Positions 46,482 to 53,800 are shown, counted from the stretch's first letter. The stretch: DNA of 64,000 nt from Kiritimatiellia bacterium (GCA_017450695.1 JAFSTA010000168.1:17826-81825); one strand, 5' to 3'. Notes: generated by a model from the letters alone, not told the origin. Translations and numbers: made by a program.

Positions 46482-46525
46482 GGCAAGGGAAGTTTCATGA
46501 CCGTGACTTGAACGCGCTTGGTCGG

Positions 46526-46560
46526 CTTGCGGGACGGGGCGCCTTTGGCCCGTCCGCAAG
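46526..46560 (+). other. Strong GC-rich hairpin at the left edge of the methyltransferase island (possible U-tract-less terminator or boundary element)
   Basis: CTTGCGG(G)ACGGG - loop GCGCCTTTG - GCCCGTCCGCAAG gives 12 bp with one bulged G and no downstream T run. It lies between the coiled-coil gene stop (46481) and the methyltransferase RBS (46572). Confidence 0.4.
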
Positions 46561-46584
46561 CGATCACAGACAAGGAGAATACGG

Positions 46585-47652
46585 GTGAGTCGATCGGGGA
46601 ACAGCAACCTTCACGATTCGTCGCGAAACAAGCAGGACGAGTTCTACACCAACCTCCAGCTCATCGAGGACGAGCTGAAGCACTACCGCGCGCACTTCAA
46701 GGGCAAGCGCGTCCTGTGCAACTGCGACGATCCCTACGAAAGCAACTTTTTCAAATATTTCGCGATGAGTTTCAATTCGCTCGGGCTGAAAAGCCTCACC
46801 GCGACGTGCTACGCGACAAGTCCCGTCGTGTACACACAGCTCGACCTGTTCGGGGAGGAGATGATCGTTGGCCGCAAAGGAACGCAAAGGGGGAAACAGC
46901 CCTACAAGATCGTCATAAACGAGGTCACGGACGTGAACGGGGACGGGCGCGTCGACCTTGCCGACGTGGAATGGCTCATCAAGAACAGGAAGAACGTGCT
47001 GACAAAGCTGAAGGGCGACGGCGACTTCCGCTCCGCCGAGTGCGTCGCGCTCCTCGACGAGGCGGACATCGTCGTCACCAACCCGCCGTTCTCGCTTTTC
47101 CGCGAATACATGGCGCTCCTGATGGAGCATGGCAAGCAGTTTCTCATCCTCGGCAACATGAACGCCGTCACCTACCGCGAGATATTCCCGCTCATTCGCG
47201 ACAACAAGGTGTGGCTCGGCAACAAGGCGGGGCATTTCTGGTTCAGGGTGCCGGACAGCTACGAGGAAAAGGCGACGGACTTCAAGATTGACGAGAACGG
47301 GCAGAAGTGGCGGCGCATGGGCAACATCTGCTGGTTCACCAACCTCGACATAGAAAAACGCCACGAGGAGATGACGCTCTTCCGCCATTATTCGCCGGAG
47401 GAATATCCCACATACGACAACTACGACGCGATAGACGTAAAGAAGACAAATGATATTCCTTGTGACTATCTAGGTGTAATGGGTGTGCCTATTACATTCA
47501 TGCAGTATTATTGCCCAGAACAATTTGACTTGCTTGGCGAATTTAATCATGGGCAAGATAACGAATTCGATTTGGCGGTTCCAAGTGTCAATGGGAAAGT
47601 AATGTTTAAGCGTATTGCAATTCGCCGCAAGCGGAAGGGGCAGGTAAAATGA
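46585..47652 (+). CDS. N6-adenine DNA methyltransferase, EcoRI-methylase family (PF13651-like)
   Basis: GTG start 46585 with AAGGAG at 46572-46577. NKQDEFYTNLQLIEDELKHYRAHFKGKRVLCNCDDPYESNFFKYF, catalytic VVTNPPFSLFREY (NPPF) and C-terminal GVMGVPITFMQYYCPEQFDLLG match the family pattern from memory. Confidence 0.8.
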   Translation: MSRSGNSNLHDSSRNKQDEFYTNLQLIEDELKHYRAHFKGKRVLCNCDDPYESNFFKYFAMSFNSLGLKSLTATCYATSPVVYTQLDLFGEEMIVGRKGTQRGKQPYKIVINEVTDVNGDGRVDLADVEWLIKNRKNVLTKLKGDGDFRSAECVALLDEADIVVTNPPFSLFREYMALLMEHGKQFLILGNMNAVTYREIFPLIRDNKVWLGNKAGHFWFRVPDSYEEKATDFKIDENGQKWRRMGNICWFTNLDIEKRHEEMTLFRHYSPEEYPTYDNYDAIDVKKTNDIPCDYLGVMGVPITFMQYYCPEQFDLLGEFNHGQDNEFDLAVPSVNGKVMFKRIAIRRKRKGQVK

Positions 47653-47955
47653 ATAACAACCGGATTTGTTCGCCGCTAACGCGGCTCACTGATGCGAGAA
47701 TGGCGAAGGCCGTTAGGCCTGAGCAAATCCGCTTGTTAAACACAAGCGAAACAATGAACAACAACCGGATTTGTTCGCCGCTAACGCGGCTCACTGATGC
47801 GAGAATGGCGAAGGCCGTTAGGCCTGAGCAAATCCGCTTGTTAAACACAAGCGAAACAATGAACAACAAACGGATTTGTTCGCCGCTAACGCGGCTCACT
47901 ATGCGAGAATGGCGAACGCCGTTAGGCGCGAGCAAATCCGTTTGTTGAACACAAA
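47649..47955 (+). repeat. Three tandem copies of a 105-bp hairpin-forming unit (between the methyltransferase stop and the GxxExxY gene)
   Basis: Units start at 47649, 47754 and 47859. Copies 1 and 2 differ at one position; copy 3 is diverged with a 1-nt deletion. Each unit has arms AACAACCGGATTTGTTCG / GAGCAAATCCGCTTGTT enclosing CTAAC...GTTAGGC. Copy 1 begins inside the methyltransferase stop codon. Confidence 0.9.
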
Positions 47956-47973
47956 CAAAGGAATGGAGGTTGT

Positions 47974-48423
47974 ATGATCCTCTACGAGGAAGAGACAAAT
48001 CGTATCATCGGCGCATGCATGGCTGTACACAACGAGTTGGGCAATGGATTCCTTGAAGCCGTTTATCAAGATGCTTTGGAGATTGAGTTTCGCGAACGAG
48101 CTATCCCCTACAGGCGCGAAGCGCATATACGAATATTTTATAAAGGGCATTTGCTCGACAAAGAGTATTACGCTGACTTCATTTGCTTTGACAAGATAAT
48201 CGTGGAATTGAAATGCGTGTCGCGTCTTGTGAATGCAAACAAAGCGCAAGTAATCAATTATCTGCACGGAACTGGACTCAAGGTCGGATTGCTTGTGAAC
48301 TTCGCTGAGGCATCGCTAAAGTGGGAGCGTCTCACAAATTTACGGAACATAAAGTCCCAAGAAGCAGCAACAAACGGATTTGCCCAGACCCAACCGTCTT
48401 TGCAATTTAGTGAGCGCCGTTAG
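47974..48423 (+). CDS. GxxExxY protein (PD-(D/E)XK-like, PDDEXK_3 / TIGR04256-type)
   Basis: 149 aa with RBS GGAGG at 47965-47969. The eponymous motif lies in HNELGNGFLEAVYQDAL (G-FL-E-AV-Y). Later YADFICFDKIIVELK matches the nuclease-fold core. Low GC (about 42-45% by eye). Confidence 0.8.
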   Translation: MILYEEETNRIIGACMAVHNELGNGFLEAVYQDALEIEFRERAIPYRREAHIRIFYKGHLLDKEYYADFICFDKIIVELKCVSRLVNANKAQVINYLHGTGLKVGLLVNFAEASLKWERLTNLRNIKSQEAATNGFAQTQPSLQFSERR

Positions 48424-48448
48424 GCGCGAACAAATCCGTTTGTTAAAA
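48369..48448 (+). repeat. Fourth, variant copy of the hairpin unit, spanning the GxxExxY stop codon
   Basis: The perfect 14-bp inverted repeat AACAAACGGATTTG (48369-48382) / CAAATCCGTTTGTT (48431-48444) has the same arms as copy 3 at 47859-47955. The inner GCGCCGTTAGGCGCG contains the TAG stop (48421-48423). The RBS of the next gene follows immediately. Confidence 0.85.
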
Positions 48449-48463
48449 CCAAGGAGCATCGAA

Positions 48464-49582
48464 ATGAACAGCAAGATGAAGATAAAGGAACACAAGATTC
48501 CCGTGCGGGAGGTGTTCGACGGGTATGTGGATTCGGCGGAGCTGGGCGTTCGCGGCTACGGCGGCAAGTTGAACATCCGTCCGGCGTTCCAGCGCGAGTT
48601 CGTTTACAAGCCCGCGCAGCGCGACGCGGTGATCGAGACCGTGCGGCAGGGGTTCCCGCTGAACGTCATGTACTGGGTGCGCAACGAGGAGGGCGGCTTC
48701 GAGATGCTCGACGGGCAGCAGCGGACTCTCTCCATCTGCCAGTACGTGAACAACGAGTTCAGCATCGACCACCACAAGTTCGAGAACCTGACGAAAGAGG
48801 AGCAGGAGGACATCCTCGATTACGAACTCACAATCTACATCTGCGAGGGCGAGGAGCGCGAGAAGCTGAAGTGGTTCGAGGTGGTGAACACCGCGGGCGA
48901 ACAGCTCAACGCGCAGGAACGCCGCAATGCGCAGTACACCGGCAGGTGGCTCCACGAGGCGAAGAAGCATTTCAGCAAGACGGGATGTGCGGCGGCGGCG
49001 ATCGGCGACAAGCTGCTGAACGGATCGGCCATACGTCAGGATTTCCTTGAAACGGCGCTTGCGTGGATTGCCGACCGCGACGGCGGTGACATCCTCGACT
49101 ACATGTCCGCGCATCAGCATGACGAAGACTGCTCCGACCTGTGGGGGTATTTCGAGAGCGTAATCAAGTGGGTCAAGGCAACGTTTCCCGTTCTGCGCGG
49201 TAAGTTGATGAAGGGGTTGCCGTGGGGCATATACTTCAACAGGTATGGGAATGAGAAACGCGACGCGGCGGCGTTGGAGAAGCGGATAACGCAACTTCTT
49301 CGCGACGATGAGGACGTGAACGACATAACGAACCAGCGCGGCATCTACGAGTATCTTCTCTCCGGCGACGAACGGCACTTGAGCATACGGCGCTTCTCCG
49401 ACAAGATGGCGCGGACGGCCTACGAACGGCAAGAGGGCAAATGCCAGAAGTGCGGCAAGGAGTTCGCCATCGAGGAAATGCAGGCCGACCACATCACGCC
49501 GTGGGCGAAGGGCGGCAAGACCGTCGCCGAGAACTGCCAGATGCTCTGCGCGGACTGTAATCGCCGCAAAGGAGGGGTGTAG
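48464..49582 (+). CDS. DUF262 (ParB/Srx-like, DGQQR motif) protein with C-terminal HNH endonuclease domain
   Basis: Start ATG 48464 (RBS AAGGAG at 48451-48456). The DUF262 signature is in FEMLDGQQRTLSICQY. C-terminal HNH: CQKCGKEF...ADHITPWAKGGKTVAENCQMLCADCNRRKG. Confidence 0.8.
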   Translation: MNSKMKIKEHKIPVREVFDGYVDSAELGVRGYGGKLNIRPAFQREFVYKPAQRDAVIETVRQGFPLNVMYWVRNEEGGFEMLDGQQRTLSICQYVNNEFSIDHHKFENLTKEEQEDILDYELTIYICEGEEREKLKWFEVVNTAGEQLNAQERRNAQYTGRWLHEAKKHFSKTGCAAAAIGDKLLNGSAIRQDFLETALAWIADRDGGDILDYMSAHQHDEDCSDLWGYFESVIKWVKATFPVLRGKLMKGLPWGIYFNRYGNEKRDAAALEKRITQLLRDDEDVNDITNQRGIYEYLLSGDERHLSIRRFSDKMARTAYERQEGKCQKCGKEFAIEEMQADHITPWAKGGKTVAENCQMLCADCNRRKGGV

Positions 49583-49586
49583 GAGC

Positions 49587-50711
49587 ATGACCGAGTTCGG
49601 AGAGTACAAGCGGGCGCCGGAGCCGGAGAAGCGTGAGAAGGCGATTGTCTGGCGTACAGCGATCGGTCTCCAGAAGGTTGACGGTCTTACGACCTCGGAG
49701 TATCTGCGTGAGACGGCGCGGCGCAATATCGAAGGTGAGATCACGATAGAAGAGAGCGGGGGGCTGATAGCCGAATACTACAAGTCCAAATCCGTCCGCG
49801 CATCGGCGGCGAAGACGCGTACGGACGAGGCTGATATTGTCTCGCAACGCATCGCCGCAATCCTCTCCGAACCGACATTCTCATTGACTGTTCCGTCCTA
49901 TCTGGCGATTCACCGAAAGTTGTTCCACGGGGTGTTTCCCCGCGCTGGAAAAATCCGCGACTACAACATCACGAAAGCGGAATGGGTCTTGGACAAAGAC
50001 ACTGTCCGCTACGAAAGTGCGGATGTAATCGCAGATACGCTGGAATACGAGTTTTCGCGACAAAGAAACTTCAGTTACAAGGGACTAGGTGTGTTGGAGA
50101 CGATTTCGCACGTGGCCCGCTTTCTTGCGGACGTGTGGCAGATTCATCCTTTCGGGGAAGGTAACACGCGAACGACAGCCGTCTTCGCAATCAAGTATCT
50201 GCGTTCGTTTGGTTTTCCAGTCACCAATGAATTGTTTGCGGAGAACGCCTGCTATTTCCGGAACGCCTTGGTCCGAGCAAACTATACGAATGTTCCGCGA
50301 GGCGTACATCGGACATTCTTCTGTTTGGAACGTTTCCTGGTAAACCTGTTGGCTGACGGAAAGTACGAACTCAAAAGCCGCTGCTTAAAAATTGGAGCGG
50401 AAGAGGTTCCGGATTCGCTTGTTCCCTCTAAAAAGGAACAAGAAGGGGAACAAGTAGAGTCGCCGCTGGGGGCGGTTATTCCCAGAGGGGTGAGGAGGCT
50501 TGTCAAGGTTCTGAAGAAGGAAATGTCTGTCGTCGAAATGATGATCGCGTTGAAGCTTGCCGTGCGGCGGAACTTTCTGGAGAAATACCTTTCTCCGGCA
50601 TTGGAGGCTGGTCTTGTAGAAATGACGCAGCCCGATTCGCCGCGTTCGCCCACGCAGAAATACCGTCTGACGGCGAAGGGACTTGAAATGCAGCTGGAAG
50701 GAGCAGTGTAA
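49587..50711 (+). CDS. Fic/DOC family protein with VbhA-like N-terminal segment and C-terminal winged-helix-like domain
   Basis: Fic motif region HPFGEGNTRTTAV (50145-50183), a variant of HxFx(D/E)GNGRxxR. Starts 4 nt after the DUF262-HNH stop with AGGAG upstream. The C-terminal segment MSVVEMMIALKLAVRRNFLEKYLSPALEAGLVEMTQP resembles a wHTH. Confidence 0.85.
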   Translation: MTEFGEYKRAPEPEKREKAIVWRTAIGLQKVDGLTTSEYLRETARRNIEGEITIEESGGLIAEYYKSKSVRASAAKTRTDEADIVSQRIAAILSEPTFSLTVPSYLAIHRKLFHGVFPRAGKIRDYNITKAEWVLDKDTVRYESADVIADTLEYEFSRQRNFSYKGLGVLETISHVARFLADVWQIHPFGEGNTRTTAVFAIKYLRSFGFPVTNELFAENACYFRNALVRANYTNVPRGVHRTFFCLERFLVNLLADGKYELKSRCLKIGAEEVPDSLVPSKKEQEGEQVESPLGAVIPRGVRRLVKVLKKEMSVVEMMIALKLAVRRNFLEKYLSPALEAGLVEMTQPDSPRSPTQKYRLTAKGLEMQLEGAV

Positions 50712-50827
50712 TGAAGACGGGAGAATTTTCGAGTAGATTTCTTCGCGGAAGGGAGAATCGAAATCCGGAAACGCGACAGAAGCGTTTCAGGTTCTGTTTT
50801 CTGTCACGGGAGTTTGGAGGATGTGAG

Positions 50828-53800
50828 ATGAAACGGATTTTGCGTACACTTGGTTGCGGCTTGCTGCTTGCGTTTGCTGCGCGTGCGGATGAGATCAAGC
50901 CGGAGGATGCGGAGACCGCCGCGCGGAATTGGATTCGCGCCGATGCCTCTCCGCTGGGAACGCGCATTGGGAAGGCTGTTTCTGGAATCCGGTCTTTTTC
51001 GGATGTTGACGGAACGGCGCTGTTCCATCTCGCCGCGCTGGATGGCGGAGGGTTCGTGATTCTCTCTGCGGACGATGGCGTGGCGCCGGTTCTCGCCTTT
51101 TCGGACCAGGGGACGTTCTCGCCGTCGGAGGACAACGCGCTGTGGGTGATATTGCAGCGTGATTTGCCGTTGCGGACCGGATTGCTCAAACGCGTCAAGC
51201 AATCGGTCAAGGGAGGCGAAGCGGCGAATCCGAACCAAGCCGCTTGGAGGCGTCTGCTCGATGTCTCGGAAGGACGGAAGTACGCGTCGAAGAACACGAG
51301 CGAGATCAGCGACCTGCGTATCGCGCCGCTGCTCAAGACGGAGTGGGGGCAGACGACGGACGACGGGTACGAAGAGAAGCCCAACCTCTACAACCTCTAC
51401 ACGCCGGAGAACGCGCCGTGCGGTTGTGTGGCGACGGCCGGAGCGCAGATCATGCGTTATTTCCAGTGGCCGTCGGGAAGCCTTCCGATCCGCACTTTTG
51501 TCTGCGCGTATGAGACGTTCTGGGAGACGATCCCGCTGATGCTGAATACATACGGCGGACCGTACGCATGGGCGAATATGCCGAACCGTCCGGCGACAGC
51601 GACTCTGCAACAATCGCAGCGCGAGGAGATCGGGAAGCTGGTGTATGATGTCGGCATTGCCTGCATGATGGTTTATTCGCAGGATGGATCCGGCGCGGGA
51701 CTGTACATGCTGGCGGATTGCTTGCCGGATTATTTCCGGTACGCCCAGGCGAAGGGGTATTGTATCGAGTCGGGAACCTTTTCCGAATCGGTCATTCAGC
51801 GGGCGGTGCTGGCGAACCTCGACGCGAGGCTGCCGGTCGCGTTGGGAATCACGGCTCCGAACGGGTACGGACATGCGGTCGTGGCGGACGGATACGGGTA
51901 TATCGGTTCGACCCGGTACGTACATATCAACATCGGGTACGACGGCGACGCCAACGCCTGGTACAATCTGCCGGACCTGAGTTTTTCGCTCAACGGCGAG
52001 AACTATCCGTACAAGTACATCGACCAGATCGTGTATAACATCCATCCGTCCCGGAAGGGGGAGATCGTTTCCGGGCGCGTGCTGTTGCCGAACGGTAACC
52101 CCGTAACGAACGCCATCGTGACAATCGAATGTAACGGGGCTTCCCAGTCGGTGACCTCCGATCAAAACGGAATCTGGTGGGGGATTGTGGAGTCGAAATC
52201 GTCCGGAACCGCATCCTATTCCGATTCGGCATATTACGGCAACTGCTCGTTTTCTGTCGGCTCCTCCGTTTCGGTGGAGACGACGGACGACGGTTACTAC
52301 ACACCGAAGACTGGATCGGTCGGGAACAGCTGGGGAAACACCATCCGCCTCTCGACTTTGCTGACGCCCGCCTATTCCGTCGAAGTCTCCCAGCTGACGA
52401 CGGCGGAAGGGATCGAGGTCTCCTGGCAACGGGGACGCAACGTCGTGTCGCAGTCGGTGTACCGTGCGCTGGCGGGCGATTTTTCCGCCGCTCGCTGTGT
52501 GGCGGAAGGTCTCTCCAACGCCACCTCCTATCTCGATACGACGGCAGTGCCGGGCGTCCAGTACACCTACTGGATTCAGTCGAACGACGCCTACGGCAAC
52601 ACCGCCTTTTCCGAAGGTGTGGCCGGCATCCGTGCCTATCCGCCTGATGCGGAACCGCCCGCGTTCCCGGAACCGTTGAACTCCACCCGCCTGAAGACGA
52701 AGGGAACCTACAGCGGATTTTTCCACGGGACGAAGGAAGTTGACGGGGAAAGCACGAATGCGATCTTGGGGACGCTCACGCTCAAGGTGACGAACGTCAA
52801 GACGGGAAAAGCCACCGCGAAACTCGTGCTGGAGGGGCGCAAACTTTCGTTGCACGCTTCCGCCTGGAAAAGCCTCCCGGATGAAGAAGGCACGCGAAGC
52901 TTGCTGTTCTCTGCGAAAAACAACATCCTTCTGCGGGTGAACGTCCGTGAGGAACGGATGTGGGGAACCTTGACCGGCAAAGGCATTACGGGCGAACTGC
53001 CGTTCGACGGTGCGCGCAACTTCTTTGTCGAAACGTCGAACAAGCGCAAGTCCCTGTGGAAATACTATCAGGGGACATGGACGATGGCGATGGAAACGCA
53101 GGTTGCCTCCGGTTCCATTCCGGCCTCCTTCCCGTGGGGATACAGCGTCTTTTCGCTGAAGGTCGCCAGCAAGGGCAAGGTGACGGTGCGGTATCTGCTC
53201 TCGGACGGAAGCAAGGGAAGCGTTTCCAGTCAGCTGCTGCTGTTGGACGTGTCGAATGTCGGCACCGCCTTCGTTCCGCTTTTCCTGCAACGCTCGAACG
53301 GAAAGAAAGGGGTGTTGGGCGCCGGATTGTGGCTCCAGGCGGAAAGCCGGAAGATCGATGGGGCGGGTTGGTGGTCGAATCCGCAGAACACCCGTTTCCA
53401 AGCGTTGCTGGTTGCCACCGGAAAGTTCAACGCTCGCCCCTACGCCAAGCTGTTGATGGACATGGACCAGACGGAGAATCTGCCTTCCTACAAGGCAACG
53501 TCAATCCGTCCGCTGGGCCAGCTTCTGCCGATCGGCGAGAAGGTTTCGGTTTCGGGGAATCGCTGCACCATCGCCAAGCAGGTGCCGGTGAAGGTCGCGA
53601 AGGACGGTACGCTTACCTGGGGCAAGAATCCGGCGGGCCTCAAGCTTTCCTACACGTACTCGACCGGCCTTGTCAAAGGCTCCTTTTACGTGTATTACCT
53701 CGTCAAGGGAAAACCGATGAAGGTGAAGGCGTCGCTTTCCGGTATTGCGCTGAACAACGGGATACGGGGCTGGATCACGATGAAAGACCTTTCGTCGGAA

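Follow-up and report, generated by a model that had tools for sequence, protein, structure and literature searches.

A strain-specific insertion in a Kiritimatiellia genome carrying a restriction-modification pair split by a GxxExxY cassette and followed by a Fic gene

This study concerns a stretch of 64,000 nucleotides of Kiritimatiellia DNA (GCA_017450695.1, JAFSTA010000168.1:17826-81825; hereafter the window) and, within it, four genes encoding in order an EcoRI-family N6-adenine DNA methyltransferase (M), a GxxExxY nuclease-like protein, a nuclease joining a DUF262 domain to an HNH domain (R) and a Fic-fold protein. As contig C66, the window belongs to a genome of 5.0 Mb (G000) assembled from metagenomic data, and its closest public relatives are rumen and gut Kiritimatiellae. 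The four genes are co-directional and stand between a gene for a secreted protein of 274 amino acids and a C10 peptidase gene (Table 1). A first-pass annotation had described M, R and Fic as a candidate defence or anti-defence island, and the genes that it described are all present and intact, at or very near the places it gave them.

Table 1. Features of the variable block, with positions counted from the first nucleotide of the window
Feature	Position	Strand	Basis
Variable block, about 4.33 kb	46482..50812	+	absent in same-genus genome G001
Imperfect hairpin downstream of the preceding gene; 12 pairs and one bulge, without T-tract	46526..46560	+	read from sequence
M, EcoRI-family N6-adenine DNA methyltransferase, 355 amino acids	46585..47652	+	PF13651 E 1.1e-137; PADLOC MTase_II PDLC03297 E 3e-124
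Three tandem 105-bp units, each with an imperfect palindrome of about 85 bp	47648..47961	+	Tandem Repeats Finder
GxxExxY/PDDEXK_3 nuclease-like gene, 149 amino acids, between M and R	47974..48423	+	PF13366 E 4.5e-41; TIGR04256 E 1.1e-42
Fourth hairpin copy, overlapping the GxxExxY 3' end	48368..48445	-	copy of the hairpin element
R, DUF262 (ParB/sulfiredoxin-like, DGQQR), helical middle and HNH, 372 amino acids	48464..49582	+	PADLOC REase_II PDLC03418 E 7e-132
Fic-fold protein with C-terminal winged-helix domain, 374 amino acids, motif HPFGEGNTRTTAV	49587..50711	+	Pfam Fic and Fic-like_C
Terminator-like hairpin between Fic and the C10 peptidase start	50768..50788	+	pattern scan, consensus match only

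The whole block is a strain-specific insertion, since the same-genus genome G001 keeps the empty site: on its contig L038 a GH106 gene, the gene for the 274-amino-acid protein (89% identity to that of the window) and the C10 peptidase gene (84%) adjoin one another, the spacer measuring about 290 bp, which bears out the earlier suggestion of horizontal traffic at this site. The block limits were set as in Table 1 because similarity between the window and L038 stops at the stop codon of the 274-amino-acid gene and restarts at the ribosome-binding site of the C10 peptidase gene. The strong boundary hairpin that had been reported at the upstream edge does exist, with arms CTTGCGGGACGGG and CCCGTCCGCAAG, but it is imperfect and has no T-tract, and the 103-nt spacer in which it lies (46482-46584) folds only modestly better than shuffled sequences (z -1.4); the G001 spacer carries a hairpin of its own, different from that of the window. 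At the other edge the C10 peptidase gene is indeed the neighbour, but it begins at 50828 and not at 50711. The longest open reading frame (ORF) opens at 50711, overlapping the Fic stop codon, while the start at 50828 (GGAGG, then ATG and a signal peptide) is based on the congener and on gene calls on same-strain contigs. Promoter and terminator scans gave numbers of sites not above those of shuffled sequence.

The methylase gene starts with GTG, 7 nt downstream of an AAGGAG, and its product carries VVTNPPF. It scores 459.5 bits against PF13651 (EcoRI_methylase), for which the curated cut-off is 26.4, and its match to the PADLOC model spans profile positions 7-330 of 332; the motifs DEFYT, CDDP and TNPPFSLFRE are invariant across nine homologues. 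M.EcoRI shares both the Pfam family and the NPPF catalytic motif with this protein. R.EcoRI is a PD-(D/E)XK enzyme, whereas the nuclease partner here is of the ParB-like and HNH kind.

For the nuclease, the longest ORF opens at 48380, but the start was set at the ATG at 48464 because all homologues begin there (MNSKMKI...) and an AAGGAG sits 7 nt upstream. The match to PDLC03418 covers positions 1-369 of 372. Pfam finds GmrSD_N/DUF262 (PF03235, E 4.3e-18) and HNH (E 8.6e-15), the C-terminal part matching PF01844, PF14279 and, weakly, Endonuclease_7; no Pfam match to DUF1524 was obtained. DGQQR occupies residues 83-87 (D83-R87), and the C-terminal HNH presents CxxC, DH and N; DGQQR, QR(E/N), CxxC, DH and the HNH asparagines are invariant in 11 homologues with identities down to 39%. 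The structure model (predicted local distance difference test score, pLDDT, 84.8) finds matches in the PDB only domain by domain, namely Gme HNH, ParB-N, Noc and sulfiredoxin, and none of these PDB matches is a full-length structural relative. An apparent strain variant with a frameshifted nuclease (L048) was discarded, the frameshift being a run of N in a metagenome contig.

The association of these two genes was followed in 12 species-level loci, drawn from contigs at one genome per species, and in 401 evenly sampled Kiritimatiellia genomes, 400 of them besides the present one. M lies directly upstream of R on the same strand in all 12 species-level loci, which span Kiritimatiellae, Lentisphaerae, Verrucomicrobia, Bacteroidales and Christensenellaceae, and the two genes are usually joined there by an ATGA stop/start overlap; the pairing is kept even in homologues of only 37-52% identity. 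The R family occurs in 37 of the 401 class genomes, and a same-strand EcoRI-type methylase is found immediately upstream in 35 of the 39 R matches from the 400 other genomes, the four exceptions being truncated matches. Beyond the class, at least 7,991 proteins of a large protein collection belong to the R family at E 1e-10 or better. It is also found on 50 plasmids from many phyla, where the gene mostly overlaps one annotated as 'adenine-specific methyltransferase EcoRI family protein', and in four phage records.

M and R are therefore a widespread and already catalogued restriction-modification (RM) cassette, the pairing of which is directly observed. The methylase, earlier taken to be an orphan, has a regular partner in the DUF262-HNH nuclease, and the statement that the arrangement is not a named system falls as far as the pair is concerned, since PADLOC-DB holds full-length models for both members (MTase_II and REase_II) and the pair is very common. 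Both proteins match these two components of the PADLOC Type II RM system over their full length, with co-directional genes and the methylase first; the difference is that here a cassette of about 0.8 kb containing the GxxExxY gene splits a pair that is adjacent in relatives (12/12 and 35/39). A phage-derived module is a weak explanation, given four phage records against 50 plasmids, and the anti-defence reading found no support.

The DUF262 domain brings to mind a different possibility, in which R is a modification-dependent Type IV nuclease of the GmrSD kind that has no protective partner in the methylase next to it. GmrSD, BrxU and SspE all have DUF262 with DGQQR as their N-terminal module (PMC4619093; PMC12707154), these enzymes likewise end in a His-Me finger nuclease, and R shows faint fold matches to BrxU and SspE, with E above 0.03. 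SspE also resembles R as read here in acting on unmarked DNA on behalf of a system that marks the host. However, GmrSD, BrxU and SspE carry DUF1524, while R ends in a classical zinc-finger HNH (PF01844) and is much shorter (372 residues against about 560 in the solved BrxU and SspE chains), and the PADLOC Type IV model reaches only its HNH part, with E 0.004. GmrSD-type Type IV enzymes also stand alone without a cognate methylase, whereas R is coupled to an N6-methyladenine (m6A) methylase that is strictly adjacent and translationally coupled to it across phyla, an arrangement that would be pointless or suicidal if methylated DNA were attacked. We therefore find a Type IV enzyme hard to credit here and regard R as the nuclease of an RM pair.

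Three further DUF262-HNH paralogues, 40-52% identical to R, are encoded in the same genome (C24:7782-17471, C154:4580-5680 and C177:570-2818). The C177 paralogue adjoins a methylase, whereas at C24 six unrelated ORFs occupy the 7.6 kb that separate the methylase gene from the nuclease gene; the gene of 178 codons upstream of the C154 nuclease is the same as in C24, and a copy of the hairpin repeat described below lies just downstream. Several 6-bp palindromes are strongly avoided in the genome, with observed/expected ratios of 0.06 for GTCGAC, 0.14 for CTCGAG, 0.16 for GTATAC, 0.18 for GTGCAC and 0.19 for CCATGG, and GGCC stands at 0.47. Palindrome avoidance was considered as a way to the recognition site of the pair and set aside, as there is no signal from sites with an AATT core and GTCGAC, CTCGAG and the others are not assignable among the many systems of the genome.

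The RM pair of the window is interrupted by a low-GC (guanine plus cytosine) patch, with GC of 0.42-0.51 against a window mean of 0.60, which is made up of the final 75 codons of the methylase gene, the three tandem hairpin units, the GxxExxY gene and the fourth hairpin copy. The low-GC cassette noticed earlier between the first two genes is thus real, but the low GC begins inside the methylase gene and also covers its mosaic tail. These 75 codons (residues 281-355; 47425-47652) have a GC of 0.417 against 0.571 in the remaining gene, and the residues they encode are only 47-52% identical to most close relatives, compared with 85% to L004 and 75% to L006. In residues 141-280, by comparison, identity to the six closest of these relatives is 90-97%. 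The methylase 3' end comes in two allelic types among close relatives, which points to recombination there. In the four closest species-level relatives of the pair (L001-L004) the contig stops 0.3-1.8 kb upstream of the methylase gene, which hints at a repeat or an assembly-breaking mobile sequence in that position.

Tandem Repeats Finder describes the hairpin array as having a period of 105, 2.9 copies (47648-47954) and 96% matches. The ends of the element are AACAAACGGATTTG ... CAAATCCGTTTGTT, and one 105-bp unit folds at -40.5 kcal/mol with a z of -5.1. No Rfam match to the repeats was found at E up to 1. Related copies are located on six other contigs of the genome, beside unrelated genes. 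Every hairpin contains GTTAGGC, the integron core-site consensus, which brought integron attC sites into consideration, but the other copies are dispersed singletons by unrelated genes. A same-strain contig (L047, 4167-4368) has two hairpin copies compared with three in the window, which makes the copy number unstable within the population.

The cassette sits exactly in the ancestral ATGA overlap between the M stop and the R start, with AATGAA on both sides, and because AATGAA is duplicated both frames are intact, M keeping its stop codon and R its start codon. A composite of methylase, cassette and nuclease is also present in a different genomic context in L045 and L046, where the nuclease is 93% and the GxxExxY protein 81% identical to those of the window, and L063 shares its upstream neighbours with L045 but is without the cassette; the insert is on these grounds polymorphic but not brand-new. 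Its traffic had been called recent, which holds only in part: the composite exists in another context, with 81% identity in the GxxExxY protein, and within the strain nothing but the repeat number (two against three) varies. It might be argued that the GxxExxY gene belongs functionally to the RM operon, for instance as a regulator or an accessory nuclease, as the same order of methylase, GxxExxY gene and nuclease recurs in two contexts. This is very unlikely: the gene is missing at the M-R junction in L063 and in all 12 species-level loci, copies of a dispersed hairpin repeat lie on both sides of it, no PADLOC model matched its product, and the two cassette-bearing operons are collinear with 84.5% DNA identity, which fits a single inherited insertion. 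A selfish insert remains the preferred reading, and the hairpin-bounded GxxExxY unit may represent a so far undescribed type of small mobile cassette.

The fourth protein is a Fic protein by profile (PF02661, E 1.2e-10) and by fold, its structure model (pLDDT 77.9) having 4RGL as the best Foldseek match and many Fic structures at probability 1.0. It had been called non-canonical, and rightly so: a GNTR-type active site, H(P/A)FGEGNTR(T/A)T, is present in 120 of 120 homologues and invariant in alignment A3, differing from the AMPylation consensus HxFx(D/E)GNGRxxR at two positions. The canonical inhibitory motif (S/T)xxxE(G/N) was not found in the protein, the sole candidate being a conserved ETARRNIEGE with a spacing that does not fit. 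Among the PADLOC models it strongly matches PDC-S72 (E 1.8e-119, profile positions 5-275 of 377, leaving the C-terminal quarter of the profile uncovered), a candidate family only, on which no paper was found in the literature searched. SoFic offers the nearest parallel, as it also combines a Fic fold with an extra C-terminal domain and is a single gene in defence neighbourhoods that is likely toxic; the Fic protein of the window differs from it by its HPFGEGNTRTT active site, by the missing inhibitory motif and by a match to the SoFic model (PDLC03963) of only E 0.0015 and 16 bits.

The neighbourhoods of Fic homologues are varied. The closest (83% identity) lies between decarboxylase and spermidine-synthase genes of polyamine synthesis, another adjoins GTPase genes and relB, and in the class genome G013 the neighbour is hsdM. 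Homologues at 69-71% identity lie beside a type I restriction system accompanied by YhcG-like genes, beside Mrr together with an N6_N4 methylase and a type IIG-like gene, or beside HsdS-like, TIR and Mrr_cat-nSTAND genes. Also among homologues at 69-71%, a conserved ORF of 43 amino acids overlaps the Fic start in L053, L056 and L060 (5877-6008), and likewise in L059 and L061. Its resemblance to the N-terminus of a type I HsdR suggests that Fic may have landed inside a type I restriction gene. An antitoxin for Fic was considered for this ORF and rejected, as it reads like an HsdR N-terminus (TEEDVKLQYITPAIL..W) and is absent from the window. The genome of the window also contains a degenerate Fic paralogue (C37:26784-27230), a frame of 213 amino acids in which the N-terminal 90 residues are joined to the C-terminal winged helix; it is 77-81% identical, residues 91-305 are deleted, and another copy of the hairpin repeat lies 3 kb away.

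Physically, Fic is tightly placed behind the nuclease, beginning 4 nt after the R stop codon as had been noted (gap 49583-49586) with a GGAGG upstream, and R and Fic are probably co-transcribed in this species. This leads to the question of whether all three genes cooperate, with the RM pair as a first line and the co-transcribed Fic as a back-up toxin released upon inhibition or loss of the pair. The arrangement of M, R and Fic is identical in six metagenome contigs of the same species, and relatives of Fic are often located within or beside other restriction systems, but the six contigs are of one strain and thus not independent, and the nearest homologue stands alone among housekeeping genes. 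The linkage is not conserved either: no Fic was found near the nuclease in the 12 species-level loci, in the 39 matches from the 400 other class genomes or in further metagenome contexts. The Fic family occurs in 14 of the 401 genomes, three of which also have the nuclease family compared with about 1.3 expected by chance, and only the present genome has Fic and R on one contig. We consider such cooperation improbable, and Fic is an independent single-gene module next to the pair rather than part of a new three-gene system. Of the earlier picture of an RM-like pair with a DUF262-HNH nuclease backed by a Fic layer, the pair stands, while Fic as a member and the three-gene unit do not.

The locus is thus an ordinary small defence islet made of catalogued kinds of parts, and we put at roughly three in four the probability that the block is a horizontally acquired islet assembled from three independent pieces, namely an RM cassette, a selfish insert and a Fic gene. 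Several points weigh against this. GAATTC has an observed/expected ratio of 0.95 in the genome, a value that speaks neither for nor against GAATTC specificity of M, and the genome shows no avoidance of AATT-core sites. The label 'REase_II' is that of a database and not a tested function, the NCBI annotation pipeline names the nuclease 'DUF262 domain-containing protein' only, and the literature searched contained no bench biochemistry for a DUF262-HNH enzyme paired with an EcoRI-type methylase. On the side of Fic, the predicted role in defence is that of an untested candidate family, of whose neighbourhoods only some are rich in defence genes, and an N6_Mtase gene is beside Fic in only 1 of 13 Fic-bearing class genomes. 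No characterised REBASE enzyme was found in the searchable literature behind the PADLOC REase_II model.

Within such an islet, the EcoRI-family methylase would mark a specific site of the host DNA with m6A, and the DUF262-HNH protein would be the cognate restriction nuclease, cutting unmarked DNA by means of its zinc-finger HNH. The ParB/sulfiredoxin-like domain with DGQQR probably binds or hydrolyses a nucleotide and would act as a licensing switch, a role proposed by analogy because BrxU and HEC-06 mutants lose defence and SspE couples GTP hydrolysis to cleavage. In GmrSD-like proteins DGQQR has been linked to nucleotide hydrolysis and is required for defence, which is abolished by its mutation in BrxU and HEC-06 (bioRxiv 10.1101/2024.01.29.577857), and PMC13251355 presents SspE as a DUF262 nuclease steered by a host mark, with GTP hydrolysis coupling recognition of the mark to cleavage. 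The selfish GxxExxY cassette entered the ATGA overlap of M and R, duplicating AATGAA, and its insertion uncouples translation of R from that of M, leaving R to rely on its own AAGGAG site. Fic, as a single-gene module of the candidate family PDC-S72, moves on its own and here lies 4 nt behind R; its fold, motif and neighbourhoods suggest that it is most likely an effector of the toxin or abortive-infection type whose chemistry differs from standard AMPylation. From SoFic it is known that one Fic protein by itself can defend through toxicity (PMC12249575), a precedent that supports the analogy for Fic and not its membership. More tentatively, and with the odds against it, the DUF262-HNH nucleases that constantly accompany EcoRI-type methylases could form a mechanistically separate class of restriction enzyme, Type II in gene content but gated or driven by a nucleotide switch on the SspE principle, m6A being the mark of self; this reading concerns the nuclease family as a whole rather than the present locus, where a co-expressed, non-AMPylating Fic would add a second layer.

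The locus itself matters little, as it consists of a catalogued RM cassette, a known defence-candidate Fic and a selfish insert. What is of wider interest is that the R family, although very common, has apparently never been tried at the bench, and that its nucleoside triphosphatase-like domain has no explanation in an enzyme of Type II style. Hairpin repeats and small genes have repeatedly landed at the M/R junction, and this must alter the balance of the two genes. Finally, the Fic family, in which the GNTR active site is conserved, is encountered repeatedly next to restriction systems of various kinds, making it a reasonable candidate for defence assays.

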